34,125 nt of DNA from a virus (Duplodnaviria; Heunggongvirae; Uroviricota; Caudoviricetes): positions 1 through 34,125 of IMG/VR virus record IMGVR_UViG_2563366806_000008. The stretch is one strand, 5' to 3'. The notes under the pieces are model-generated. The model was not told where the DNA came from. It searched no databases and was given only the letters and a program-made list of their open reading frames with translations. Positions 1 to 33,542 of this stretch are shown here, one piece after another. The position numbers and the translations under genes were made by a program. The stretch's first letter is position 1. Every line of letters begins with the position of its first letter.

Positions 1-1362
1 ATGTTTAAACCGGAACTCCTTTCCCCGGCGGGAACGCTGAAAAATATGCGTTACGCTTTCGCTTATGGCGCAGATGCTGTTTATGCGGGCCAGCCGCGTT
101 ACTCCCTGCGTGTGCGCAACAACGAATTCAACCACGAAAATCTTCAGCTCGGCATCAATGAAGCCCACGCGCTGGGGAAAAAGTTTTATGTCGTGGTCAA
201 CATTGCACCGCACAACGCCAAGCTGAAAACCTTTATCCGTGACCTGAAACCGGTGGTGGAAATGGGGCCGGATGCGCTGATTATGTCCGATCCAGGGCTG
301 ATTATGCTGGTGCGTGAGCACTTCCCTGAAATGCCGATCCACCTCTCGGTGCAGGCTAACGCCGTAAACTGGGCGACGGTGAAATTCTGGCAGCAAATGG
401 GCCTGACCCGCGTGATCCTCTCTCGCGAGCTGTCGCTGGAAGAGATTGAAGAGATCCGCAATCAGGTGCCGGATATGGAGATCGAGATCTTCGTTCACGG
501 CGCACTGTGCATGGCCTACTCCGGTCGCTGCCTGCTCTCTGGCTATATCAACAAGCGCGATCCGAACCAGGGTACCTGCACCAACGCCTGCCGCTGGGAG
601 TACAACGTCCAGGAAGGGAAAGAAGATGACGTTGGCAACATCGTACACAAGTACGAGCCGATTCCGGTGCAAAATGTTGAGCCGACGCTGGGTATCGGCG
701 CGCCAACCGACAAAGTGTTTATGATCGAAGAAGCCCAGCGTCCGGGCGAGTATATGACCGCGTTTGAAGATGAGCACGGCACTTACATCATGAACTCGAA
801 AGATCTGCGCGCCATCGCCCATGTAGAACGCCTGACCAAAATGGGCGTGCATTCGCTGAAAATCGAAGGCCGTACTAAATCTTTCTACTATTGCGCACGC
901 ACCGCACAGGTTTACCGTAAAGCTATCGATGACGCCGCTGCGGGCAAACCGTTCGATACCAGCCTGCTGGAAACTCTGGAAGGTCTGGCGCATCGTGGCT
1001 ATACCGAAGGTTTCCTGCGTCGTCATACTCACGACGATTATCAGAACTACGAATACGGTTATTCAGTTTCTGACCGCCAGCAGTTTGTTGGTGAGTTTAC
1101 CGGTGAGCGCAAGGGGGACCTCGCGGCGGTAGCGGTGAAAAATAAATTCTCCGTTGGCGACAGCCTTGAGCTGATGACGCCGCAAGGCAACATTAACTTT
1201 ACCCTTGAGCACATGGAAAACGCCAAAGGTGAAGCGATGCCGGTCGCACCAGGCGATGGTTATACTGTGTGGCTCCCGGTCCCGCAGGATCTTGAGCTCA
1301 ATTACGCTCTGCTGATGCGTAATTTCTCCGGGGAAACCACGCGTAACCCACACGGTAAGTGA
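1..1362 (+). CDS. yegQ: U32-family peptidase-like protein YegQ, complete 453-aa ORF (host chromosome)
   Basis: Full-length ORF in six-frame track; translation MFKPELLSPAGTL... recognised as E. coli YegQ (peptidase U32 family); lies outside the prophage direct repeat. Confidence 0.85.
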   Translation: MFKPELLSPAGTLKNMRYAFAYGADAVYAGQPRYSLRVRNNEFNHENLQLGINEAHALGKKFYVVVNIAPHNAKLKTFIRDLKPVVEMGPDALIMSDPGLIMLVREHFPEMPIHLSVQANAVNWATVKFWQQMGLTRVILSRELSLEEIEEIRNQVPDMEIEIFVHGALCMAYSGRCLLSGYINKRDPNQGTCTNACRWEYNVQEGKEDDVGNIVHKYEPIPVQNVEPTLGIGAPTDKVFMIEEAQRPGEYMTAFEDEHGTYIMNSKDLRAIAHVERLTKMGVHSLKIEGRTKSFYYCARTAQVYRKAIDDAAAGKPFDTSLLETLEGLAHRGYTEGFLRRHTHDDYQNYEYGYSVSDRQQFVGEFTGERKGDLAAVAVKNKFSVGDSLELMTPQGNINFTLEHMENAKGEAMPVAPGDGYTVWLPVPQDLELNYALLMRNFSGETTRNPHGK

Positions 1363-1396
1363 TTAATTTCGATTATTTTTCCCGGATGGAAAATTC

Positions 1397-1439
1397 TTAG
1401 AAACCGATCACATACAGCTGCATTTATTAAGGTTATCAT
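1397..1439 (+). promoter_or_regulatory. Putative cyaR promoter: CRP-like site (ttaga-N6-TCACA, 1397-1412) and -10 TATCAT (1434-1439)
   Basis: TCACA at 1408-1412 with a weak left half-site; site centre about 42 bp upstream of the inferred CyaR 5' end; CyaR is known to be CRP-activated. Confidence 0.4.
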
Positions 1440-1446
1440 CCGTTTC

Positions 1447-1533
1447 GCTGAAAAACATAACCCATAAAATGCTAGCTGTACCAGGAACCACCTCCTTAGC
1501 CTGTGTAATCTCCCTTACACGGGCTTATTTTTT
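1447..1533 (+). ncRNA. cyaR: CyaR (RyeE) Hfq-binding small RNA, about 87 nt, ending in an intrinsic terminator
   Basis: Sequence gctgaaaaacataacccataaaatgctagctgtaccaggaaccacctccttagcctgtgtaatctcccttacacgggcttatttttt matches my recollection of E. coli CyaR; stem cctgtgtaa/ttacacggg followed by T-run. Confidence 0.8.
1507..1533. repeat. Prophage attachment core, left copy (ogr-proximal junction): aatctcccttacacgggcttatttttt
   Basis: Exact 27-bp direct repeat of 33612-33638; coincides with the last 27 nt of cyaR; phage genes start immediately to the right. Confidence 0.8.
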
Positions 1534-1597
1534 ACGTACAACAAATTGAAATAAAAGGATTTATTTCTGGTTAAGTCCACACATTGACCACATCGAC

Positions 1598-1631
1598 AAA
1601 AAAAGCCCCTCGACTGAGGGGCTTTCTGTTT
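1598..1631 (-). terminator. Intrinsic terminator downstream of ogr (possibly bidirectional)
   Basis: Stem gcccctc (1605-1611) / gaggggc (1616-1622), loop gact, flanked by an A-run on + (T-run on minus) and tttctgttt on +. Confidence 0.55.
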
Positions 1632-7047: not shown

Positions 7048-8238
7048 TTAATTGCTGTTAACCGAGGTGACCAGATTTGCCAGGTATTTATCGGTAATAC
7101 GCTGGCGCAGGGTCAGGTTTTCGAGAGGAGGCACCGGTGTATAGTCGTAGTCGATATACAGTTTTCCGGCCTTGAGGGTTTCCGCATCGTTGGATTCTTC
7201 GCTGAACCAGCAGGTCGCATCCACGATATAGCCGTTTGTTTTCAGCTCACGGAATTTGGCATTGATGCCGTCAACGATGTCGCGAATCAGCGTTGCGGTG
7301 ATGGGCTTATCCACCGCCCACATGTGCGCCTCAGCCATCGTGTCGGCCAACACCTGCGCGGTGCGGGTGTAGTTTTCAAAGAGGAACAGCGGGTCATCAG
7401 AGCAGGTACAGTTACCCCAGAAGCGGAAACCGTCGCGGCGAATCAGCGTAGTGACACCTGACTCGTTAAGCAGGTCAGCATCAGTACCGGACTCCTGCAA
7501 ATCCCAGAATACAGATGCGCTGATGCCGGTAACACCGTTCACCCCGACGTTGGACAGCGTTTTATGCCAGCCCTGCTCCTGGTCGATTTTAGCGCGCAGA
7601 CCCAGCGCACGGGCGGTGGCATACGCGGTGGCGGTGGTACTGGCGACCGTATCCCATGCGAGGAAATCCGGCCAGATGACCATCAGCTCACGCTGGCTGA
7701 AATTCTGGCGGTAAGCTTTCACCTCGGAAATGGTTTTACAGCCCCATGCGCTGATATACCCGAAAGCGCGCAGCTTCTGACAGACTGATGCCAGTGCAAC
7801 AGCCACCTCTTTGGTATCCAGCCCCGGCACACCGAGAATACGCGGTTTAACACCGGTTACCGACTCCGCCGCCAGCAGGGCTTTCAGTCCGGTGTACTGA
7901 CCGTTTTCGTCGGTAGTGCCGATGATATTGGAAACGGTCTGCGCGAGTTTCGTTTCCTCGTCGTCGCCGGTGCCGTCTTCCACACGTACGACAACGGTGA
8001 CCGGTTTTGACTGGTCAGCGATGGCCTGTAACGACGCCGCCAGCGTGCCTTTTTTACCGGCCTTTGCAATTGCGCTCTGCACATTGGTAATCAGCACCGG
8101 TTTATTGAGTGGGAAGATTTCCGCATCCGCATCGCTGGCCGTGCAGACCATGCCAACAATGGCGGTGGATACGGTGGAAATGACGCGGGTGCCGTCGTTA
8201 ATCTCCAGCACCTGCACGCCGTGATGATAGTCACTCAT
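7048..8238 (-). CDS. FI: Contractile tail sheath protein FI (396 aa)
   Basis: 396 aa; first gene of the FI-FII-E-T-U-D operon; length as in P2. Confidence 0.85.
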   Translation of the reverse strand: MSDYHHGVQVLEINDGTRVISTVSTAIVGMVCTASDADAEIFPLNKPVLITNVQSAIAKAGKKGTLAASLQAIADQSKPVTVVVRVEDGTGDDEETKLAQTVSNIIGTTDENGQYTGLKALLAAESVTGVKPRILGVPGLDTKEVAVALASVCQKLRAFGYISAWGCKTISEVKAYRQNFSQRELMVIWPDFLAWDTVASTTATAYATARALGLRAKIDQEQGWHKTLSNVGVNGVTGISASVFWDLQESGTDADLLNESGVTTLIRRDGFRFWGNCTCSDDPLFLFENYTRTAQVLADTMAEAHMWAVDKPITATLIRDIVDGINAKFRELKTNGYIVDATCWFSEESNDAETLKAGKLYIDYDYTPVPPLENLTLRQRITDKYLANLVTSVNSN

Positions 8239-8524: not shown

Positions 8525-9751
8525 TCAACCTTTCAATGCTTCAATCGTATTATTAAGTCGACGCAACAGGTCGTCGTACGTCAATATGTCTATCATGTTG
8601 GCGTACTTACGTTTGATTATCTCAAAATCAAGCAACTGACCGTCGGTCATGTTACCGTTCGCTATCTGATCGCGTCCGACAATGATGATGGCTTTTGGGT
8701 TAGATATACGAATACACATTCCCGCTGGCAGAGAATTCTTGTAGGCATTCGTAAGCTCTTTTTCACCCTTAACACCCCATTTAGATAAATGAAAAATATA
8801 CTTTTCAGCCTGCATAATACCGCCGCTAAGTTCTGATGTAGGAATATAGTTATCGCGATAGGGCGTCTTGCGAAGGATCTTATCATCAAACGGCTTTTTG
8901 ACTTCGATGATATCAAGGTTGCCGTTTGCATCCACCAGTGCAATGTCTATAAACCGATTTGTTTTAGCCGAAGGATTAGAGTAATAGTCGAAAATTTTAA
9001 CCTTCTCGAGGACCTTGATATATTTTGGAAAAAGTAATGTGATGAAGGGTATCATCAGGCTCTGCCAGTCATCTTCAGACAAGTTAGTTTTGTTATTCAA
9101 CGCATCCTGGATAATGTCTCTTATGAGTGTATATTTCTCAATTTCGAGCTTATTTAAAACTTCTAAATCCAGTTTGTCGGTTTTTCTGATCACTGTTTTT
9201 CTGTTTAGGTAATGTTCATACCGTTCGCGAGCATCTTTCATACCATCAAGATAACCTGCGAGAATAGCGTGAACCCTTGCATTAGCATAGCGATCCAGTT
9301 CCCCTGTGTTGGGGAATTTACTTTGCAACTCCTGGAATACGCTTTTTGGTATAGCTTCCGGCTTATCTCCTCCGATGATGATGGGATTAGTGTGATCGAG
9401 TAGTTTTGAAAGCCGACCAAAAATGGAGACGTTGCGTTCTGACGCAAATACTTTCCTTTCAAGCTTGATGGACTTATGTATAAGGACATCTCGATTAATG
9501 CTTAGAATCCGTCCCGGAACTGTTATGTATTCATTATTAAGCGTGCCAAAATTAAAGGAATATTCGTAATCATTAAAATCCTGAACGGTTGACGGTGGGT
9601 TTCTCAAGTCCTGGAGTTGAAAGTTAAAAATTCGTGAAATGCATACTGTTTGAAATTTATTTAAACTCTCCCAAACCCAAATTATTTGTTCTCCGCTGTC
9701 ACCGTCGTAAGTCATAACAACGTCATTTGATACAAAGCTGAACTGTAACAT
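8525..9751 (-). CDS. Cargo protein (408 aa): N-terminal domain of unknown function plus C-terminal PD-(D/E)xK / RecB-like nuclease domain; candidate anti-phage effector, possibly Shedu (DUF4263)-like
   Basis: AT-rich ORF in the G/FI slot with good RBS (agagga) before ATG at 9751; motifs FIDIALVD (D269/D274), IIEVKK (E283-x-K285) and QAEKY (Q314-xxx-Y318) match nuclease motifs I, II, III. Confidence 0.6.
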   Translation of the reverse strand: MLQFSFVSNDVVMTYDGDSGEQIIWVWESLNKFQTVCISRIFNFQLQDLRNPPSTVQDFNDYEYSFNFGTLNNEYITVPGRILSINRDVLIHKSIKLERKVFASERNVSIFGRLSKLLDHTNPIIIGGDKPEAIPKSVFQELQSKFPNTGELDRYANARVHAILAGYLDGMKDARERYEHYLNRKTVIRKTDKLDLEVLNKLEIEKYTLIRDIIQDALNNKTNLSEDDWQSLMIPFITLLFPKYIKVLEKVKIFDYYSNPSAKTNRFIDIALVDANGNLDIIEVKKPFDDKILRKTPYRDNYIPTSELSGGIMQAEKYIFHLSKWGVKGEKELTNAYKNSLPAGMCIRISNPKAIIIVGRDQIANGNMTDGQLLDFEIIKRKYANMIDILTYDDLLRRLNNTIEALKG

Positions 9752-10041: not shown

Positions 10042-10569
10042 TTATTGCGGTATTTCCGGCCATTCAGGATTTGCAGGATCCACACGGCTGACCAGAACGC
10101 TGTAGCGTTCCCATGACTCCAGTCGTGCGCGCTCCTCATCCGTCGCCATATTCAGCCTGACGGTGCGTTCCAGCGGCTGGATAACGCTTTCCGCTTCGGA
10201 AAGTAACGCGGCCTTTTGTGATTCGGCCTGTTGTTGCTGTTCGTCTGCCGTATAAATCCGCTTAATCACGGCACCATCCTTAAACATCCATTTACCTGAG
10301 TCATCAGCACGTCGGTTGGCGGTAATATCAGGAACCTCGACAACGCTAAAACCTTCAGGGTTAAGCGTTGAAGCATCTCTGGTGATGCCGACAATTATAT
10401 TATTCTCGTCGTAAACAATCTTTATCGTGTCCTCCTGAAAATTACTTACTTCCTCATACCAGTTTTTTCCCTCTTCGGACCATAACCAGATAACATCAAA
10501 ATTTTTTGTCAGTTGATATTGGGCAACAGTTTTTGGATTACCCGCAATAATATTTTTTAAATGCTGCAT
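10042..10569 (-). CDS. G: Tail fibre assembly chaperone G (175 aa)
   Basis: Immediately downstream of H; 175 aa as in P2 gpG. Confidence 0.8.
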
Positions 10570-15010: not shown

Positions 15011-15754
15011 ATGGATAAATATCAAATCTGGGAAAATCAAAAAGACACCATCGCCCACCAAGAGTATTTAAAAATCTCCGACACCAATTTACTTGGACAT
15101 ATGCATATTGCCAATTACGAAGTTGTCCAACATGAATTAAGCAAATTCAACTCCCCTGACATTGTTTCCCGTCATTCATTTAACAGAGACAAATTTAAAA
15201 AAGAACATTTAAACATATCAAGACACCTTTTCAATTATATATCTTCAGCATTATCATTTAGAGATTCAACGCGCAACCTACTTAAAACAAAAGCATTAAA
15301 TATTGCCGACATTAAAATCAAATCAGAGGCATTCATCAATCATGAATTCCGAAATAATCCAGTAATAAAATTAATGGAGGATTTAAGAAACATCCTGACG
15401 CATCAAAACATGATCGCCCCATCAATATCATCATTCATGCACCTCCAAAGAAATATAAACATGCACGGCTTTTCATTTAAGATTGAAAGAATCTTAAACA
15501 ATGACAGAACCACCAAACAAACAAAAGAATATTTAATCTCACTAAAGCAAAAAAACTTATTCATTTTACCGATAATAGAAGAATACCAATACACGACTCT
15601 TAAGTATCAACACTGGCTTTTAGCAAGTATCTACACTGTTCATCAAGATACTTACCAAGAATACTGGAATGCGAGAAAAAACATCATGAACGAATGGGGA
15701 GGAGACACTCAGCTAATACCTAAAGAGAGTGAGCTCACTTATTTAACCAGATAA
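15011..15754 (+). CDS. Cargo ORF of unknown function (247 aa), opposite strand to the late operons; candidate accessory/defence gene
   Basis: Strongly AT-rich ORF with RBS aagaagga before the ATG; Asn/Lys/Ile-rich; occupies the S/V junction (P2 orf30 position) on the opposite strand; contains R126-x4-H131 (RNILTH). Confidence 0.6.
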   Translation: MDKYQIWENQKDTIAHQEYLKISDTNLLGHMHIANYEVVQHELSKFNSPDIVSRHSFNRDKFKKEHLNISRHLFNYISSALSFRDSTRNLLKTKALNIADIKIKSEAFINHEFRNNPVIKLMEDLRNILTHQNMIAPSISSFMHLQRNINMHGFSFKIERILNNDRTTKQTKEYLISLKQKNLFILPIIEEYQYTTLKYQHWLLASIYTVHQDTYQEYWNARKNIMNEWGGDTQLIPKESELTYLTR

Positions 15755-22332: not shown

Positions 22333-24105
22333 ATGACCATCACCACAGACACCACTCTTTTACACGACCCGCGTCGTCAGGCGGCGCTGCTGTACTGGCA
22401 GGGGTTTTCCGTGCCGCAGATTGCCGCCATGTTGCAGATGAAACGCCCGACGGTGCAGAGCTGGAAACAGCGCGACGGCTGGGACAGCGTTGCCCCCATC
22501 AGCCGTGTCGAAATGAGTCTGGAAGCGCGGCTGACCCAGCTCATCATCAAACCGCAGAAAACCGGCGGTGACTTCAAGGAAATTGACCTGCTCGGACGCC
22601 AGATTGAACGACTGGCACGGGTAAACCGCTACAGCCAGACCGGCAACGAGGCAGACCTTAATCCGAACATCGCTAACCGCAACAAAGGCGGGCGGCGCAA
22701 ACCGAAAAAGAATTTTTTCAGTGACGAGGCTATCGAAAAGCTGGAGCAGATTTTCTTTGAGCAGTCTTTCGAATATCAGTTGCACTGGTATCGCGCCGGG
22801 CTTGAGCACCGCATCCGCGATATCCTGAAATCCCGCCAGATTGGCGCGACGTTTTATTTTTCCCGCGAGGCGCTGCTGCGCGCCCTGAAAACCGGTCATA
22901 ACCAGATTTTTCTGTCGGCCAGTAAAACGCAGGCGTATGTGTTCCGCGAATACATCATCGCCTTTGCCCGGCTGGTTGACGTTGACCTGACCGGTGACCC
23001 GATTGTCCTGGGCAATAACGGCGCAAAACTGATTTTTCTCGGCACCAACTCCAACACCGCGCAGAGCCATAACGGCGACCTGTACGTCGACGAGATTTTC
23101 TGGATACCGAATTTTCAGGTACTGCGTAAGGTGGCATCAGGTATGGCCTCACAGAGTCACCTGCGCTCGACCTATTTCTCCACCCCGTCCACGCTGGCGC
23201 ACGACGCCTACCCGTTCTGGTCGGGTGAACTGTTCAACCGGGGACGCGCCAGCGCCGCCGAACGCGTGGAAATCGACGTCAGTCATAACGCTCTTGCCGG
23301 TGGGCTTCTCTGTGCGGACGGTCAGTGGCGGCAGATTGTCACCATTGAGGACGCCCTGAAAGGTGGCTGCACGCTGTTCGACATTGAGCAGCTTAAACGC
23401 GAAAACAGCGCCGACGATTTTAAAAACCTGTTCATGTGTGAATTTGTTGACGACAAGGCGTCGGTGTTCCCGTTCGAGGAGCTGCAACGCTGCATGGTCG
23501 ACACGCTGGAAGAATGGGAAGACTATGCGCCGTTTGCCGCGAATCCGTTCGGCTCCCGCCCGGTCTGGATTGGTTACGACCCGTCACACCGTGGCGACAG
23601 TGCCGGATGCGTGGTGCTGGCACCGCCGGTGGTGGCCGGTGGCAAATTCAGAATACTTGAGCGTCACCAGTGGAAAGGCATGGACTTTGCCACCCAGGCT
23701 GAATCCATCCGCAAACTCACCGAAAAATACAACGTCGAATACATCGGTATTGATGCCACCGGCCTCGGTGTCGGCGTGTTCCAGCTCGTTCGCTCGTTCT
23801 ATCCCGCCGCACGCGATATCCGCTACACGCCGGAAATGAAAACCGCAATGGTGCTCAAGGCAAAAGACGTTATTCGCCGTGGCTGTCTGGAATATGACGT
23901 CAGCGCCACCGACATCACCAGCTCGTTTATGGCTATCCGCAAGACCATGACCAGCAGCGGACGCAGCGCCACCTATGAGGCCAGCCGCAGCGAGGAAGCC
24001 AGCCACGCCGACCTCGCCTGGGCGACCATGCACGCCCTGTTAAATGAGCCACTCACCGCCGGTATCAGCACCCCGCTGACATCCACCATTCTGGAGTTTT
24101 ACTGA
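22333..24105 (+). CDS. P: Terminase ATPase (large) subunit P (590 aa)
   Basis: Trimmed to MTITTDTTLLHD...; 590 aa as in P2 gpP; followed directly by portal gene Q. Confidence 0.85.
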   Translation: MTITTDTTLLHDPRRQAALLYWQGFSVPQIAAMLQMKRPTVQSWKQRDGWDSVAPISRVEMSLEARLTQLIIKPQKTGGDFKEIDLLGRQIERLARVNRYSQTGNEADLNPNIANRNKGGRRKPKKNFFSDEAIEKLEQIFFEQSFEYQLHWYRAGLEHRIRDILKSRQIGATFYFSREALLRALKTGHNQIFLSASKTQAYVFREYIIAFARLVDVDLTGDPIVLGNNGAKLIFLGTNSNTAQSHNGDLYVDEIFWIPNFQVLRKVASGMASQSHLRSTYFSTPSTLAHDAYPFWSGELFNRGRASAAERVEIDVSHNALAGGLLCADGQWRQIVTIEDALKGGCTLFDIEQLKRENSADDFKNLFMCEFVDDKASVFPFEELQRCMVDTLEEWEDYAPFAANPFGSRPVWIGYDPSHRGDSAGCVVLAPPVVAGGKFRILERHQWKGMDFATQAESIRKLTEKYNVEYIGIDATGLGVGVFQLVRSFYPAARDIRYTPEMKTAMVLKAKDVIRRGCLEYDVSATDITSSFMAIRKTMTSSGRSATYEASRSEEASHADLAWATMHALLNEPLTAGISTPLTSTILEFY

Positions 24106-25139
24106 TGAGCAAGAAAAAAGGGAAAACACCGCAACCTGCGGCAAAAAAAATGACCGCCAGCGCCCCGAAAATGGAGGCATTCACCTTTGGTGAACCGGTG
24201 CCGGTACTCGACCGCCGTGACATTCTGGATTACGTCGAGTGCATCAGTAACGGCAGATGGTATGAGCCACCGGTCAGCTTTACCGGTCTGGCAAAAAGCC
24301 TGCGTGCTGCCGTACATCACAGCTCACCGATTTACGTCAAACGTAATATTCTGGCTTCAACGTTTATTCCGCACCCGTGGCTTTCCCAGCAGGATTTCAG
24401 CCGCTTTGTGCTGGATTTTCTGGTGTTCGGTAATGCGTTTCTGGAAAAGCGTTACAGCACCACCGGTAAGGTCATCAGACTGGAAACCTCACCGGCAAAA
24501 TATACCCGCCGTGGCGTGGAGGAGGATGTTTACTGGTGGGTGCCGTCCTTCAACGAGCCGACAGCCTTCGCGCCCGGCTCCGTGTTTCACCTGCTGGAGC
24601 CGGATATTAATCAGGAGCTGTACGGCCTGCCGGAATATCTCAGCGCCCTTAATTCTGCCTGGCTGAATGAGTCGGCCACGCTGTTCCGCCGCAAGTATTA
24701 CGAAAACGGCGCTCATGCCGGATATATCATGTACGTCACCGATGCCGTGCAGGATCGCAACGATATCGAAATGCTTCGCGAAAACATGGTCAAGTCGAAA
24801 GGCCGCAACAACTTTAAAAATCTGTTTCTCTATGCCCCGCAGGGGAAAGCCGACGGCATTAAAATTATCCCGCTCAGTGAAGTGGCAACGAAGGACGATT
24901 TTTTTAATATCAAAAAAGCCAGCGCCGCTGACCTGCTGGACGCGCACCGCATCCCCTTTCAGTTGATGGGCGGCAAGCCGGAGAACGTCGGGTCGCTGGG
25001 TGATATTGAGAAAGTGGCAAAGGTCTTTGTCCGCAATGAGCTTATCCCGCTACAGGACAGGATCCGCGAGATAAACGGCTGGCTCGGTCAGGAGGTCATC
25101 CGCTTTAAAAACTACTCACTGGACACTGACAACGGCTGA
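24105..25139 (+). CDS. Q: Portal protein Q (344 aa)
   Basis: 344 aa as in P2 gpQ; last gene before cos. Confidence 0.85.
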   Translation: MSKKKGKTPQPAAKKMTASAPKMEAFTFGEPVPVLDRRDILDYVECISNGRWYEPPVSFTGLAKSLRAAVHHSSPIYVKRNILASTFIPHPWLSQQDFSRFVLDFLVFGNAFLEKRYSTTGKVIRLETSPAKYTRRGVEEDVYWWVPSFNEPTAFAPGSVFHLLEPDINQELYGLPEYLSALNSAWLNESATLFRRKYYENGAHAGYIMYVTDAVQDRNDIEMLRENMVKSKGRNNFKNLFLYAPQGKADGIKIIPLSEVATKDDFFNIKKASAADLLDAHRIPFQLMGGKPENVGSLGDIEKVAKVFVRNELIPLQDRIREINGWLGQEVIRFKNYSLDTDNG

Positions 25140-25308: not shown

Positions 25309-25327
25309 GTGCTATCCCCGCCTCGCC
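25309..25327 (-). other. Candidate cos cohesive-end sequence (19 nt)
   Basis: Minus-strand GGCGAGGCGGGGATAGCAC differs at one position from the P2 cos overhang as I recall it (GGCGAGGCGGGGAAAGCAC); lies between Q and the replication side as expected. Confidence 0.55.
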
Positions 25328-25542
25328 TGCCCGCTTTATGGGTCGGTTTTAATGCAGGTGCACGAATACACCGGAGGCGCGCCGGCACTGGTGGCGCTCA
25401 GACGCAACAGGGGAGGAAAACGCATGCAATTGAATGCATTTCTAGGCACACCTAAAAATGAAAAAATGTTATGACAATTAATCATTTTAAACACACTGAT
25501 TAAGGGTAGAATTCTCCTAGTAAAATCATAGAAAAACCGCTA

Positions 25543-26472
25543 TCAAACCAGGCTTTTGCCTTGCTTCATTTTTTTAGATGAGTCTAAAAATTTGAAATTA
25601 TCATTAGATGAAAATATTCTTTCTGCGGTATGCCGAATGACTGAAGTATTGAAGACCGCAGCCTGCTCCTCATTACAACTGAATACACCCTCATGACCAT
25701 CAAACTCGCCCGCCAAAAGAAGGTTTTTTGATACTGGGAACAAAACTAAAGTGTCTTTTACACCAAACCCGGGGGAATAAGGGCCTCGTGCTAATTCAGG
25801 ATTAGTCCACATTAAGCAAACTGGGTTATCTGAAGTTATAAATGACCCTTGCCCATCAGATATGGTCATAAGTGACCAGTTGCGTTGATGCAACAACTTG
25901 GTGATAACAGGTACACATTTCATTTCCATATCTATCATGAACTCTCTGATTACATTGATTTCGAAATTATCCCCATCCACAAAATTTTTAATTTTTTCGT
26001 AAGCGAGATCATATGGCAAAGACTCACCCATTTCTTTCTCATAAGCTAATTTGCAATCGTCCCAACGCTCAGCCGAACTAACTGAGGATTTCATGATAAA
26101 CTTTGCTATTTGTTTCAATGGAGATGATAAATGTTCTCGCTGAGCAGGCGTACGTATTGCCAATAAGGAAATAAACTCCAGAATAACATCTTTGGTTTCG
26201 CCTGAAAACTCGCCCCCCTCCTCAAGTTTTCTTAAATGAGTAGCGACACTGCCTTCAAACTCTGCAAGAGAACTCTCGAGATAGTTTGGGTCAACTCCAT
26301 CCAATTCTAATCGGTTGAAATCTCTAACCCCCCCGACATTGCGAGTATTACTCTCAAAGGTTTTGCGCTCCTTTAAATCTATTACAGTTAATTTTGATTT
26401 TTTCCCCCCATTACTTGTAAACCCTTTCAAATAACATTGGGATAAAAAATGATGATGCCTTGCAACACTCAT
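25543..26472 (-). CDS. DUF4238-type cargo protein (309 aa from Met at 26472); candidate single-gene anti-phage protein
   Basis: AT-rich ORF in the tin/old slot; N-terminal HHFLSQCYLKGF resembles the DUF4238 signature (HH-x-x-P/S-Q-x-YL-x-x-F); RBS ggag before ATG at 26472; ORF extends upstream to 26514. Confidence 0.65.
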   Translation of the reverse strand: MSVARHHHFLSQCYLKGFTSNGGKKSKLTVIDLKERKTFESNTRNVGGVRDFNRLELDGVDPNYLESSLAEFEGSVATHLRKLEEGGEFSGETKDVILEFISLLAIRTPAQREHLSSPLKQIAKFIMKSSVSSAERWDDCKLAYEKEMGESLPYDLAYEKIKNFVDGDNFEINVIREFMIDMEMKCVPVITKLLHQRNWSLMTISDGQGSFITSDNPVCLMWTNPELARGPYSPGFGVKDTLVLFPVSKNLLLAGEFDGHEGVFSCNEEQAAVFNTSVIRHTAERIFSSNDNFKFLDSSKKMKQGKSLV

Positions 26473-26575
26473 ACTCAGCTCCGTTATGGCTATAATCGCA
26501 TAAATAATAAGCACTTATATTGCAATCATCTAGTTAAATACACAATATTTATGACTCCGAAATTTCATTAAATCA

Positions 26576-28789
26576 CTATTGATAGGTTTTACCAATTAGT
26601 GCCAGCTCGAAATGGATGCGTGGAATCTGCGAACGTTCAGCCTTTTTCATCCGCCCTGATGGCGCTATCTGGTACGGTTTTAATGGTTCGCAGTTTCTTT
26701 GTTGCCAATTCGGTCTCGGTGCACCATGTTTTAATGCACTCCTGAGCACCGTCACAACTTCCGGGTCATCCCATCCGATAACACCACTATCAACCAGATT
26801 TAACACCGCTGCGGCATGCTCAGACGGTGTAGGGTGCATAACCGGAACGTCACCGCCGGTGAACTTTCCACAGTTATTGACAGGACTCCGAGGCGCGGCG
26901 ATGCCGCTTTTTAAAGTCAAAGGCTCAACGACCGGCACTTTCGGCACAATGCGCCAGTCCGTCGTTCTGGTGATATGAATATGACGCGCGCCGAGATGCG
27001 GCGCGTAAATGCCGACCACTCTCTCGACTTCTTCCTCGTACTCGTTAACTTCATCCGACGGACTACGGGCGACCCTGACAGTCTGACAATCGCGCGGGAC
27101 ATTTGCCCCGCCCTGCGCGCTGATATACAACGCAAAATCACCACTGTCTGCGGCGGCGCGTGCAACCTCGACGCGTTCGTCAAACTCATCAGCAATGCTG
27201 ACGCCGCGAGGCAATTTGCGTAGTTCACGGTAAGCCCCCATTGTCGGCAGGCCAACCGTTTTAAATTGCGGGATGCGCCACGTTGACGCCCATGCGGTAA
27301 CAGCCGCCGCTGTGTCTTTCAGCGGCCTGCCGGTATCGTTATCGAGCTGACCATCCAGTGCATAGCCGTCGATGTTTTTTGAAATGTATTTCGCGATATA
27401 TCCCGCAGCACCGCCCCGGTTAAGGTGTTTTGCCTGAAAACGGTTTCGCGCAGCTCCTCTTTCGTCTCCATCCTCTTTGAGCGCGTAGCGACGCATGATT
27501 TCGATAATCTGGTTACGCTGGCGTGGATTACAAAAAAGCATCATATGCCAGTGCGGCGTTCCGTCGTGGTGTGGCTCGACGACACGCAAACCGTAGACCT
27601 GTAAATCATTATCCTTGAATGCCGTGCGCATCAGGCTCCAGATGCGGCAGAGATAACGCTGCGCATCCTTTGGATTAAATGCCTCATCGTTCCAGCCGTG
27701 ATTAAGCTGAACGGTTTTACTTTCGCCTTTTCTGACCTGACGTGTCGGGTGATACTTTGACGGCGCGGTCAGCGTGATAAACATCCCCACATCACCCTCT
27801 GCGGCGGCGTAACGCTCAATACCGGCAATGGTGTTCATCAGCTCCATCCGGCGAATTTCAGGATTAGAAATACTGCCCATCACCTTACTGATAAGGTCGA
27901 TGCGCTCGCCGGTTTCCCTGTTTTCAAGGTCACACGATTTAAGAAATTCCAGATTTGCCTGGCGGCGTGCACGCACATCACGAATGGCATGTTTACTGGC
28001 ATAAGGAGAACGGTCTTTATTGACCTCCCCGACAGCAATCAGTAACGCCTCATGCCAGCGCATACGCTGGCCTTTAAGCTGATGAGTCCACCACTCATCG
28101 TTAAACAGACGGGCAATGGCAGAATATGCCTGCCTCGTGGTCATCTGCCCTTTACGGTATTTTTTCCAGTAGAGCGGGGAAATATTGAAAGCACGTGCAG
28201 CGCCAGCAACATGACCATAGAGGTGAGCCTGCGCCTCATCCGTAAACAGCGATTCTTTTTCGCCATGCGCATCCACCCAGGCATCGCTGAGTTCCTCATA
28301 CATCATGAAAAGCTGCGATGAGATACGGGCAGCAAACTTTTTTAGCTCCTTATCATTCATTCCCGGCAGGCGCGCATAGTGGTCACGCTCTGCCAGAAAC
28401 AGTAACGACGCGTCGGTGTTCATTTCATGGCGCTGATTCACACGCTCAATGCGCGGCCATAAACGACGCTGAAAAGTGGATGTGAGGAAATAAAACCCGT
28501 GCACCGGGCTTTTATTGCGCCGGATGTAGTCATAGCGTGAAGTAAACAGCGAGCGCAAAAAGTAAGGCAGGCGGTTAATCGTGGATAAAACACCTTGCAC
28601 CTGACGCATCTCGTCACGTGTAAGGGGTCTTTCGCGCCCGACGGCCTCGCGTGGCGCGTTCCATGCATAAGCACCGGTAAACGCCTTACCGGTGCCTGCG
28701 GCAAATGCTGGCGGAGGGACAAAACGCCCGGAGGCTTTAACGGCCATATGAGCCAAAAGCCTCTGAACAACGCTTGCTGAGTTGCTCAA
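26576..28789 (-). CDS. A: Replication initiation protein A (rolling-circle nickase, 737 aa)
   Basis: Large last gene of the early operon; N-terminus MSNSASVVQRLLAHMAVKAS...; somewhat shorter than P2 gpA as recalled (761 aa). Confidence 0.8.
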   Translation of the reverse strand: MSNSASVVQRLLAHMAVKASGRFVPPPAFAAGTGKAFTGAYAWNAPREAVGRERPLTRDEMRQVQGVLSTINRLPYFLRSLFTSRYDYIRRNKSPVHGFYFLTSTFQRRLWPRIERVNQRHEMNTDASLLFLAERDHYARLPGMNDKELKKFAARISSQLFMMYEELSDAWVDAHGEKESLFTDEAQAHLYGHVAGAARAFNISPLYWKKYRKGQMTTRQAYSAIARLFNDEWWTHQLKGQRMRWHEALLIAVGEVNKDRSPYASKHAIRDVRARRQANLEFLKSCDLENRETGERIDLISKVMGSISNPEIRRMELMNTIAGIERYAAAEGDVGMFITLTAPSKYHPTRQVRKGESKTVQLNHGWNDEAFNPKDAQRYLCRIWSLMRTAFKDNDLQVYGLRVVEPHHDGTPHWHMMLFCNPRQRNQIIEIMRRYALKEDGDERGAARNRFQAKHLNRGGAAGYIAKYISKNIDGYALDGQLDNDTGRPLKDTAAAVTAWASTWRIPQFKTVGLPTMGAYRELRKLPRGVSIADEFDERVEVARAAADSGDFALYISAQGGANVPRDCQTVRVARSPSDEVNEYEEEVERVVGIYAPHLGARHIHITRTTDWRIVPKVPVVEPLTLKSGIAAPRSPVNNCGKFTGGDVPVMHPTPSEHAAAVLNLVDSGVIGWDDPEVVTVLRSALKHGAPRPNWQQRNCEPLKPYQIAPSGRMKKAERSQIPRIHFELALIGKTYQ

Positions 28790-30355: not shown

Positions 30356-31576
30356 TGTAGATTCAATCTGTCAATGCAACACCCCTTTCAATTATCTCTT
30401 TCGGTGTTTTGAACTTCAGTGTCTTTCTCGGTCTGTTGTTTAGCTGAGCAGCAACCAGATCTAGTTCATGTTGAGTATATTGGGCAAGACATGTCTTTTT
30501 AGGAAAGTACTGCCGAATTAGCCCATTTGTGTTCTCATTTGTTCCCCGCTGCCAAGGACTCTGAGGATCGCAGAAGTAAACTTTAACGCCGGTGCTGACA
30601 GTAAATTCTAGATGTCTGGCCAGTTCCATTCCTCTGTCCCATGTCAGTGATTTTCTGAGTTCTGACGGTAAACTCAGGAATTTGTCGGTAAGAGCCTGAT
30701 TTACTGAGACAGAATCTTTGCCCCTGAGTCTAAGGATGATCGTATAACGTGATTTTCGGTCTACAAGTGTGGCTATATGAGAGTTTTTTGTACCTGAGAC
30801 TAAATCGCCCTCCCAATGCCCCAGAGAGCGTCTGTTATCGATATTTCGGGAACGTTCGTGAATTGGTGTTCCGTTCACTATGTTAATCGTACCTCTTTCG
30901 CCTTTGCGGGTATGACGCCTGCCATGGCGAAGGCTATGCGACCGTCGCAGATGCTGTATATTCAGGTGGTGTAGCGCTTCACGGCTACGAAAGTACAGCG
31001 TTTTATAAATTGTCTCAGGTGATATTCGCAGCGTTTTTTGACGTGGTTTTGTTCGCCTTAACCATCCTGATATTTGCTCTGGAGACCATTTCATCTCCAG
31101 CTTTTCCAGAACAAGCTTTCGCAATGGTAAATTTTGATCCAGTAAGCACGGTTTTGGCCTTTTCGCCATTCTGTTGGCTCGGTTATTAGCATCAACAGCT
31201 TTGTAATAGCGTCTGCCCCGATTACGCTGAACTTCACGTGAGATCGTCGAAGGACTGCGATTCAGCGCAGTAGCTATCGCACGAATGCTCATTTTGGCTG
31301 ACAAACCAGCTCGTATCTCCTCGCGCTCAGACAGTGTCAGGTGAGCTACAGCCCGCTTACGCTCATGGGGTTTTATGCCGCCAGTATCCCTTAACATAGT
31401 GAAGATCGTTCCGGGTTTTGAACCCAGGATATTCGCTATTTCACTGAAGCCTGTTCCGTTCTTCCATAGTTCAAAAACAGAGGCTTTTTCCTCTGCTGTA
31501 AATGTTCGTCTCATTCAAAAAACCTCCGCAACCCCATGTTTTCACATAACTGTTGCGTTGACCAATTGAATCTACA
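30356..31576 (-). mobile_element. IS30 insertion sequence, 1221 bp, with imperfect 26-bp terminal inverted repeats and 2-bp AG target-site duplication
   Basis: Ends tgtagattcaatctgtcaatgcaaca (30356-30381) and tgtagattcaattggtcaacgcaaca (reverse complement of 31551-31576); flanking AG at 30354-30355 and 31577-31578. Confidence 0.9.
30363..31514 (-). CDS. insI: IS30-family transposase (383 aa)
   Basis: Translation MRRTFTAEEKASVFELWKNGTGFSEIANILG... with HTH N-terminus and DDE catalytic region; 383 aa as for IS30 transposase. Confidence 0.9.
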   Translation of the reverse strand: MRRTFTAEEKASVFELWKNGTGFSEIANILGSKPGTIFTMLRDTGGIKPHERKRAVAHLTLSEREEIRAGLSAKMSIRAIATALNRSPSTISREVQRNRGRRYYKAVDANNRANRMAKRPKPCLLDQNLPLRKLVLEKLEMKWSPEQISGWLRRTKPRQKTLRISPETIYKTLYFRSREALHHLNIQHLRRSHSLRHGRRHTRKGERGTINIVNGTPIHERSRNIDNRRSLGHWEGDLVSGTKNSHIATLVDRKSRYTIILRLRGKDSVSVNQALTDKFLSLPSELRKSLTWDRGMELARHLEFTVSTGVKVYFCDPQSPWQRGTNENTNGLIRQYFPKKTCLAQYTQHELDLVAAQLNNRPRKTLKFKTPKEIIERGVALTD

Positions 31577-31737
31577 AGAGCCTTCTTTAACGGACTCTGT
31601 TTTTTGGTGCGGATAATGATTCCCTTGCGTCCCTTACCGTGGGTAATGGTGAAGTCAATCGCCCTGGGGCTTTCGTTACGCAGTAACTGAGCAATACAAC
31701 GAGGCTCATTCATACGGTTCTCCTTAACGTGGTTCAC
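31577..31737 (-). pseudogene. Small early-operon ORF (orf78-like) truncated at its 3' end by IS30
   Basis: The track ORF 31471-31737 is a chimera: about 53 phage codons then read-through into the IS30 end; re-joining the flanks by hand restores about 12 codons ending at the B start. Confidence 0.4.
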
Positions 31738-31999
31738 CGAGACCTAACCACATCAACCAGCCGTCACGAATCTCTTTAGGGCGGCTTTCATAAGCCAGTT
31801 TTAGTCCGTTATTCCATGCCGGAAGGTATACCCAATATTCACCTGCACGACCTGAAGCTGATTGTGGATCGGTCATATCAATTACAGGCAGCTTTCCTTT
31901 ATCGATCATCCGACGAACCGCTCCTGTCGATTTTCCTATTAGTTTTGCGAACTCCTGATAAGGAATCGCATCAGTCATGAGTGTTACTTGCTTGCTCAT
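31724..31999 (-). CDS. cox: Cox, excisionase and repressor of Pc (91 aa)
   Basis: MSKQVTLMTDAIPYQEFAKLIGKSTGAVRRMIDKGKLPVIDM... with HTH; 91 aa, first gene of the early operon, divergent from C. Confidence 0.85.
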   Translation of the reverse strand: MSKQVTLMTDAIPYQEFAKLIGKSTGAVRRMIDKGKLPVIDMTDPQSASGRAGEYWVYLPAWNNGLKLAYESRPKEIRDGWLMWLGLGEPR

Positions 32000-32036
32000 G
32001 TCGTCCTCCAGCCCTCATGAATTGCGTTTAATGCCT

Positions 32037-32120
32037 TATAATGCCTTTTAGTGCCCACATCCAAGCACTAAACAATCTACATCTAAACTAAATACTATTG
32101 AGATCTAAACACTATGTCAA
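32037..32120. promoter_or_regulatory. Immunity switch: Pc -10 TATAAT (32037-32042, +); Pe -35 TTGACA (32115-32120, minus) and -10 TAGTAT (32092-32097, minus) flanked by two ATCTAAAC direct repeats (32081-32088, 32103-32110) 22 bp apart
   Basis: Motifs read directly; face-to-face promoters with direct-repeat operators flanking the Pe -10 match the known P2 C-repressor operator architecture. Confidence 0.5.
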
Positions 32121-32413
32121 ACACGATAAGCGAGAAGATAGTCTTAATGCGAAAATCTGAGTATTTGAGCAGACAACAACTTGCTGATTTAACAGGGGTT
32201 CCGTATGGCACGCTGAGTTACTATGAAAGTGGTCGTTCAACACCTCCAACAGATGTCATGATGAACATCCTGCAGACCCCACAATTCACCAAATACACTT
32301 TATGGTTCATGACAAATCAGATCGCTCCTGAGTCCGGGCAAATTGCGCCCGCTCTCGCACACTTTGGGCAAAACGAAACAACGTCGCCCCACTCCGGTCA
32401 AAAGACTGGTTAA
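32114..32413 (+). CDS. C: Immunity repressor C (99 aa)
   Basis: 99 aa as in P2 C; N-terminal HTH (LSRQQLADLTGVPYGTLSYYESG); upstream of int. Confidence 0.85.
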   Translation: MSNTISEKIVLMRKSEYLSRQQLADLTGVPYGTLSYYESGRSTPPTDVMMNILQTPQFTKYTLWFMTNQIAPESGQIAPALAHFGQNETTSPHSGQKTG

Positions 32414-32528
32414 CAATTCATCGTGAATATATTCATCACAAGTGCCTACTATTGGTGGCTAAATTTCAGCCACCACGAAAAAAACGATTAGTAGTCGCAA
32501 AAAAACACACCACTCGGAGGGTTTTCTG

Positions 32529-33542
32529 ATGGCAATCAAAAAACTCGATGATGGTCGATATGAAGTGGACATCCGCCCTACTGGACGTAATGGAAAACGC
32601 ATCCGTAGGAAGTTTGATAAGAAAAGCGAAGCTGTCGCTTTCGAGAAATACACGTTGTACAACCACCACAATAAAGAATGGCTATCAAAACCAACAGACA
32701 AGCGACGTCTGTCGGAGCTGACACAGATCTGGTGGGATTTAAAGGGTAAACACGAAGAGCATGGGAAATCTAATCTTGGAAAAATTGAAATCTTCACAAA
32801 AATAACGAATGACCCATGCGCATTTCAAATTACGAAATCGCTTATCAGCCAATACTGCGCCACCCGAAGAAGTCAGGGTATTAAACCTTCGAGTATCAAT
32901 CGTGATTTAACATGTATTAGCGGCATGTTTACAGCCCTGATTGAAGCGGAGTTATACTTTGGTGAGCACCCTATCAGAGGGACAAAAAGGCTTAAGGAGG
33001 AAAAACCAGACACAGGCTATCTCACGCAGGAAGAAATTGCCTTACTGCTCGCAGCTCTTGACGGCGACAACAAAAAGATTGCGATTCTTTGCCTGAGTAC
33101 TGGAGCACGTTGGGGAGAAGCAGCTCGTTTGAAAGCAGAAAATATCATTCATAACCGCGTCACGTTTGTTAAAACGAAAACAAACAAACCACGCACCGTC
33201 CCGATCTCAGAGGCTGTTGCCAAAATGATCGCGGATAACAAACGAGGTTTTTTATTCCCTGATGCTGATTACCCTCGCTTCAGACGAACAATGAAAGCAA
33301 TAAAACCGGATTTGCCAATGGGGCAAGCCACACATGCACTAAGGCACAGCTTTGCCACTCATTTCATGATTAATGGAGGAAGTATTATCACGCTACAACG
33401 GATACTAGGTCACACGCGGATTGAGCAAACTATGGTTTACGCTCATTTTGCTCCAGAGTACCTTCAGGACGCCATTTCTCTTAATCCGCTGAGAGGTGGT
33501 ACTGAGGCCGAGAGTGTCCACACAGTGTCCACAGTAGAGTAA
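32529..33542 (+). CDS. int: Tyrosine integrase (337 aa)
   Basis: 337 aa as in P2 Int; C-terminal catalytic motifs (ARWGE, HALRHSFATH, LGHTRIEQTMVYAH with the Tyr); ends about 70 bp before the att core. Confidence 0.9.
   Translation: MAIKKLDDGRYEVDIRPTGRNGKRIRRKFDKKSEAVAFEKYTLYNHHNKEWLSKPTDKRRLSELTQIWWDLKGKHEEHGKSNLGKIEIFTKITNDPCAFQITKSLISQYCATRRSQGIKPSSINRDLTCISGMFTALIEAELYFGEHPIRGTKRLKEEKPDTGYLTQEEIALLLAALDGDNKKIAILCLSTGARWGEAARLKAENIIHNRVTFVKTKTNKPRTVPISEAVAKMIADNKRGFLFPDADYPRFRRTMKAIKPDLPMGQATHALRHSFATHFMINGGSIITLQRILGHTRIEQTMVYAHFAPEYLQDAISLNPLRGGTEAESVHTVSTVE

Follow-up and report, generated by a model that had tools for sequence, protein, structure and literature searches.

A single-gene DUF4238 anti-phage system, very probably functional, as cargo between gene A and cos of a pro483-type prophage

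The hotspot adjoining cos in P2-like phages has been described by Rousset, Depardieu et al. 2022 (Cell Host Microbe; PMC9122126). The construct pFR101 of that study, consisting of a single DUF4238 gene from Escherichia coli TA007 with its native promoter, conferred strong T7 resistance on MG1655, T7 being the sole phage named as affected among the eight tested, and constitutive expression of DUF4238 from its native promoter was tolerated (PMC9122126). The sequence of the pFR101 protein is given in Table S2 of that paper, whose hotspot cargo table already contains WP_001515549 and in which some hotspot loci were entered as 'DUF4238 + hypothetical'. This bears out the preliminary description of the DNA studied here, which noted that a single-gene DUF4238 system from P2-like hotspots had been reported as defensive and that its mechanism had not been described. 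Indeed, the molecular function is given as unknown in PMC9122126, and a literature search for a mechanism of DUF4238, Rst_DUF4238, or PF14022 retrieved none; the matches to 'PF14022' were Plasmodium gene identifiers and were discarded. In subsequent publications, DUF4238 figures only as a system that was detected and whose mechanism is called unknown or unclassifiable. In addition, a Nat Commun 2024 paper (PMC11350192), whose text does not name the system concerned, places a DUF4238 domain in one validated E. coli TIR system, for which the TIR NADase site is required.

The DNA stretch analysed here (34,125 nucleotides; the window) contained a DUF4238 gene on the minus strand (25543..26472), starting at an ATG codon and encoding a defence protein of 309 amino acids of the type termed 'DUF4238-Pers' by PADLOC. 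In DefenseFinder, the single-gene DUF4238 system is named 'Rst_DUF4238'. A ribosome-binding site (GGAG; 26479..26482, minus strand) could be read from the sequence 6 nt upstream of the ATG, and this 930-nt ATG form is also the one annotated in RefSeq and in the pro483 record. A program-made list of open reading frames extended the gene to a GTG at 26514 (323 amino acids); this longer form was rejected, since both the annotations and the full-length profiles begin at the ATG, and since the extension overlaps the conserved upstream block and the candidate -10 element described below. The protein matched Pfam PF14022 (DUF4238) far beyond chance (E 4.2e-39; 135 bits against a cutoff of 27 bits), with residues 7-291 aligned nearly end to end to positions 2-280 of the 281 profile positions. 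The N-terminal DUF4238 signature that had been noticed from the letters alone is thus genuine, corresponding to HHFLSQCYLKGF at residues 7-18. Similarly, the PADLOC model PDLC03000 'DUF4238-Pers' (E 1.5e-219; 725.5 bits) and PHROG 29785 both covered residues 1-309 of 309, indicating a full-length protein instead of the truncated fragment that had been kept in mind as a possible refutation. No second PADLOC model matched the protein and no NCBIfam model for it was found. Identity with an OLD-family nuclease, with P2 Old, or with P2 Tin was rejected, as the searches of Pfam, PADLOC, and PHROGs returned DUF4238 models only, with neither an AAA/TOPRIM (OLD) signature nor Tin homology. Among 63 family members, no weak match to any other Pfam family or PADLOC model, AAA/TOPRIM included, was recurrent. 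The protein lacked a hydrophobic segment (maximum KD19 1.09) and had a pI of about 6.0; it is predicted to be cytoplasmic, soluble, and self-sufficient.

The gene lay in the variable cargo slot of a P2-like prophage (25357..26575), which extended from the conserved cos-proximal ...GGTTTTAATGCA to the stop codon of gene A. These bounds were set by comparison with the P2 and APECO1 sequences, the partial matches to other prophages ending at approximately 25430-25438. The left landmark of the hotspot was the cos cohesive-end sequence (25309..25327; gtgctatccccgcctcgcc versus gtgctttccccgcctcgcc in P2, 18 of 19 positions identical), with the portal gene Q (24105-25139) on the cos side of the slot, and the right landmark was the replication gene A on the minus strand (26576..28789; Pfam Phage_GPA, E 1e-122; 'replication endonuclease' in RefSeq). 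The slot contained one credible gene only, namely the DUF4238 gene; a second open reading frame (25352-25474; 40 amino acids) was situated on the opposite strand, in GC-rich cos-proximal DNA common to P2-like phages. The GC content was 0.378-0.404 over positions 25501-26500, against 0.54-0.56 in the flanks, and the DUF4238 gene is hence compositionally foreign. The AT-rich open reading frame between cos and A was therefore correctly delimited by the preliminary description, coordinates and landmarks included, and its placement of the gene in the tin/old position held as well. Indeed, the order in the P2 annotation is A, orf91, tin, old, and cosR; the orientation alone differs, A being co-directional with the DUF4238 gene but antiparallel to tin and old in P2. 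The same arrangement of gene A, DUF4238 gene, and cos was found in pro483 and in the prophage of E. coli 258E.

A 1.4-kb region comprising the gene was 99.9% identical to Escherichia phage pro483 (Peduovirus), including its ORF11, and the same DNA occurred in 14 of 5426 complete E. coli genomes (identity of at least 99% with a query coverage of at least 80%). The product of the gene in E. coli 258E is WP_001515549.1, annotated as 'DUF4238 domain-containing protein' and encoded between the portal gene and the gene for the replication endonuclease. The identical 309-amino acid protein heads a cluster of 103 database sequences (P0001). The window gene is therefore a correct re-identification of an already catalogued system. 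A tblastn search of 50,697 deposited phage genomes found pro483 as the sole one with a detectable homologue, the match being 100%. The family as a whole is large, comprising 7505 clusters at 50% identity with E<=1e-3, of which 856 with E<=1e-30, and it ranges from Gammaproteobacteria to Verrucomicrobiota and Caldisericaceae. Among the best 150 of the 7505 representatives, nearly all proteins were of about 290-350 amino acids and all were single-domain, the shorter ones being truncated matches.

A further copy was present in Kluyvera intermedia (NZ_JAKCNS010000008; L012 5580-7172), in which the final ~320 bp of A, together with the DUF4238 gene and cos, were found with 97% identity over 1.6 kb, without other P2 genes around them. 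A U32 peptidase gene homologous to window positions 1-1609 was located about 3 kb from this segment; the left end of the window itself consisted of a host U32 peptidase gene adjoining ogr. The Kluyvera locus appears to be a prophage remnant that retained the defence gene, which argues for selection and not for decay.

Compared with the protein of TA007, the window protein was identical at 284 of 309 positions (92%), without gaps. None of the 25 substitutions preceded residue 87, and all affected positions that vary within the family, leaving the conserved sites untouched; these surface-type changes could retune phage recognition. In the first 66 codons, for which the TA007 DNA has been published, there were 14 synonymous differences and no non-synonymous ones, indicating purifying selection. 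Upstream of the gene, alignments revealed a 31-nt conserved block (TCATAAATATTGTGTATTTAACTAGATGATT; 26524..26554, minus strand) that was identical in the window, TA007, and Kluyvera alleles, the DNA around it diverging between the alleles while the block itself stayed identical. This block is a candidate promoter, operator, or other regulatory element, and it plausibly carries the native promoter behind the active TA007 construct. A candidate -10 element (TATTAT; 26509-26504, minus strand) was read between this block and the gene, and AACGGAGCT(G/A)AGTATG, at the ribosome-binding site, was also conserved in the upstream alignment of the window, TA007, and Kluyvera alleles. A scan with the sigma-70 consensus found no site on the minus strand in the interval of the 31-nt block. 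Consensus scans for promoters and terminators and folding of the RNA of the 3' region gave nothing convincing (fold z-score -0.25).

To assess the neighbours of the gene, 40 loci were taken from a collection with one genome per species, and genes were called around 38 of them. Within three genes on either side in these 38 loci, no neighbour family recurred beyond a single pair. Scans of 124 neighbours with Pfam and PADLOC returned a varied set, of which few were defence genes (GajA twice, a ThsA macro domain, and AAA_21-type ATPases) and many were housekeeping genes. The contexts of the homologues differed completely, encompassing an integrative element beside genes for GmrSD and a type I restriction enzyme, the vicinity of Gabija in Pseudomonas, a Vibrio prophage, another prophage near an integrase gene, and, for a copy with 84% identity, a non-phage context. 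Together with the Kluyvera remnant, these differing contexts indicate that the DUF4238 gene behaves as a mobile one-gene cassette. Within E. coli, a divergent second DUF4238 gene (P0005; loci L003/L004/L005; 50% identity) was found in an integrative element with serine recombinases, a DUF927 primase, and RadC, next to variable cargo: one variant had GmrSD with a type I restriction enzyme, another an HNH protein with a DNA methylase. A toxin-antitoxin-type abortive infection module was considered and rejected, as no recurrent neighbour was found. The 40-amino acid open reading frame at 25352-25474 was rejected as an antitoxin gene too, lying on the other strand in the shared cos-proximal DNA.

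The prophage carried further cargo. A Shedu protein, SduA (8525-9751, minus strand; 408 amino acids), was identified by Pfam SduA_C (E 3e-33) and, over its full length, by PADLOC SduA (728 bits). Its gene was situated between those for the tail sheath (7048-8238) and tail-fibre assembly (10042-10569), within an AT-rich island with a GC content of about 0.40; by P2 gene order, this position is Z/fun, the second of the variable slots in P2-like phages. With SduA and DUF4238, this prophage bears two known defence systems or more. An open reading frame of 247 amino acids on the plus strand (15011-15754), opposite to the flanking baseplate and tail-completion genes, lay where the AT content of the window was highest (GC 0.33-0.37). 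It belonged to PHROG 12680, of unknown function, and had no match in Pfam, PADLOC, or the PDB; 18 of 5426 E. coli genomes carried it under the annotation 'hypothetical protein'. The 258E prophage contained a different gene at the same position (1245 bp; 'ATP-binding protein'), so that 15011-15754 appears to be a further, third slot for cargo, whose occupant is uncharacterised. Cargo is thus stacked within one prophage, DUF4238 and Shedu occupying two slots at least and an uncharacterised gene a third. Compared with the 258E prophage, there was also an IS30-family insertion of 1221 bp (30356-31576; transposase open reading frame 30363-31514, HTH_38 and rve), located within the P2 Orf78 homologue, in the part of the early operon that separates cox from gene B. 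This insertion may be polar on the expression of B and A, and lytic growth could be crippled. Furthermore, the region 31714-33542, containing the cox/C/int immunity and integration functions, had no blastn match to the 258E prophage, which was elsewhere 97-99% identical; judging from this comparison, the prophage is mosaic, its immunity and integrase module differing from that of 258E.

An AlphaFold model of the DUF4238 protein, made with an alignment of 63 sequences as input, was of high confidence (pLDDT 90.1; pTM 0.87) and was divided into three parts. Its N-terminal motif segment, which includes a beta-hairpin, ends at about residue 63; residues 64-195 make up a middle domain of six helices, and residues 198-304 a C-terminal part rich in beta structure. 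Neither a relative of the model among solved structures nor sequence likeness to any enzyme was found. A viral structure library yielded a single significant fold match (Foldseek E 2e-10; probability 1.0), namely V9IQH5, an uncharacterised protein from Stenotrophomonas phage Smp131. Conservation was calculated over 137 representatives (50% non-redundant). The residues H8, Y14, L15, F18, F52, E66, E73, P109, R112, E183, R197, W199, F211, D215, P217, G235, G255, and N275 were conserved in at least 95% of them, and H7, Q12, D32, R50, D51, N53, R107, and T241 in 85-95%; the window protein kept every residue conserved in at least 85%. About 15 polar residues are conserved across the family, all of which are intact in the window protein, and the least variable blocks were residues 1-20, 41-60, and 211-220.

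The identity and the location of the gene are observed here directly; its role in defence may be extended to it by analogy with the 92%-identical allele, the only one for which defence has been shown in the literature. The window gene is very probably a functional allele of the known single-gene DUF4238 system; it forms lysogenic-conversion cargo of a pro483-type prophage, in the hotspot between A and cos, and most likely excludes T7-type phages. Such phages would be excluded in a lysogen, to the benefit of both host and prophage. DUF4238 alone would then serve as a soluble cytoplasmic sensor and effector that is harmless until infection. Its active site would be built from the conserved polar residues of all three parts of the protein, with the HHxLxQxYLxxF and RDFN motifs contributed by the N-terminal segment, E66, E73, R112, and E183 by the middle domain, and R197, D215-N-P, and N275 by the C-terminal beta domain. 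Activation would come from a T7-specific component, or else the enzyme would act on one. These conserved polar residues would face a common site, and the existence of a latent enzyme with these residues in its active site is put forward tentatively, as a possibility that falls somewhat short of being probable. The same reserve applies to an undescribed fold with an undescribed defence chemistry, in which a self-contained sensor-effector enzyme would have a catalytic site of the His-His, Asp/Glu, and Arg type that is unmatched in any solved structure. Taken as a whole, the explanation that combines the known DUF4238 system with a latent enzyme is considered likely.

The main competitor of a latent enzyme is a non-catalytic blocker resembling Tin. 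By binding, it would inactivate a single protein or step specific to T7, such as T7 RNA polymerase-driven genome entry or replication, and its conserved residues would be structural or form a binding surface. P2 Tin poisons T-even replication, and as a non-essential lysogenic-conversion protein of the same locus it offers an analogy. The lack of resemblance to any enzyme, in sequence as well as in fold, would suit such a blocker, as would the narrow published range, with T7 alone named out of eight phages, and the tolerance of constitutive expression from the native promoter (PMC9122126). It is nevertheless considered rather unlikely, given that 7505 clusters, from Gammaproteobacteria to Verrucomicrobiota and Caldisericaceae, keep the same ~15 polar residues, which is more typical of catalysis. 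The latent enzyme is favoured, since conservation that reaches this deep across phyla is more easily explained by catalysis than by the binding of a fast-evolving phage protein.

DUF4238 might also be one half of a system, sensing infection and either signalling to a partner encoded elsewhere or being switched on by it, be it a host factor or a TIR-type enzyme, as could be suggested by the validated E. coli TIR system with a DUF4238 domain (PMC11350192) and by the 'DUF4238 + hypothetical' hotspot loci (PMC9122126). This is improbable, as a single gene was enough in E. coli K-12 MG1655 (PMC9122126), the 38 loci had no recurrent neighbour, and the slot had no second credible gene. Least probable is that the gene is inert cargo of a decaying prophage, unexpressed or inactivated by the 25 substitutions. 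The IS30 insertion in the early operon, the failure to find a consensus promoter, and the Kluyvera genome that keeps only a 1.6-kb A'-DUF4238-cos remnant could be read in that way; however, the open reading frame is intact, identical to that heading a cluster of 103 sequences, and complete in its conserved residues. In addition, its differences from TA007 are conservative and placed at variable sites, with synonymous changes only in the N-terminal 66 codons, and the 31-nt block and ribosome-binding site match those of the allele whose native promoter sufficed for activity. That the Kluyvera remnant kept the gene again argues for selection.

As a sighting, the window copy adds little, its accession being catalogued, a near-identical allele being validated against T7, and the system being detected automatically by both DefenseFinder and PADLOC. 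The remaining interest lies in the mechanism and the orphan fold of a large family of single proteins and not in this copy. A study by mutation and biochemistry can readily be designed from the list of conserved residues, the comparison of alleles, and the evidence for autonomy.

With regard to known proteins and systems, V9IQH5 shares with the window protein its fold match and a similar length (298 amino acids), whereas the identity is 12% and the TM score about 0.4, and, being uncharacterised, it gives no mechanistic information; Smp131 is a P2-like temperate phage as well. Within P2 itself, the target of old is lambda and that of tin the T-even phages, against T7 for the tested DUF4238 allele. 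The window gene has in common with old and tin its slot between A and cos and its place among non-essential prophage genes excluding unrelated phages (PMC9122126), but it has no sequence relationship with them and the opposite orientation. The E. coli TIR system likewise has a Pfam DUF4238 domain in a validated anti-phage context (PMC11350192), whereas no TIR partner accompanies the window gene or recurs near its homologues. The closest counterpart is the TA007 system, from which the window allele differs in 25 substitutions and in the DNA directly downstream of gene A. The TA007 allele is the one that was assayed, and the WP_001515549 type, to which the window copy belongs, was catalogued in the same study. 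Both represent the same family and the same single-gene module, with a protein of 309 amino acids, a P2 hotspot next to cos, the same ribosome-binding site, and the same 31-nt upstream block.
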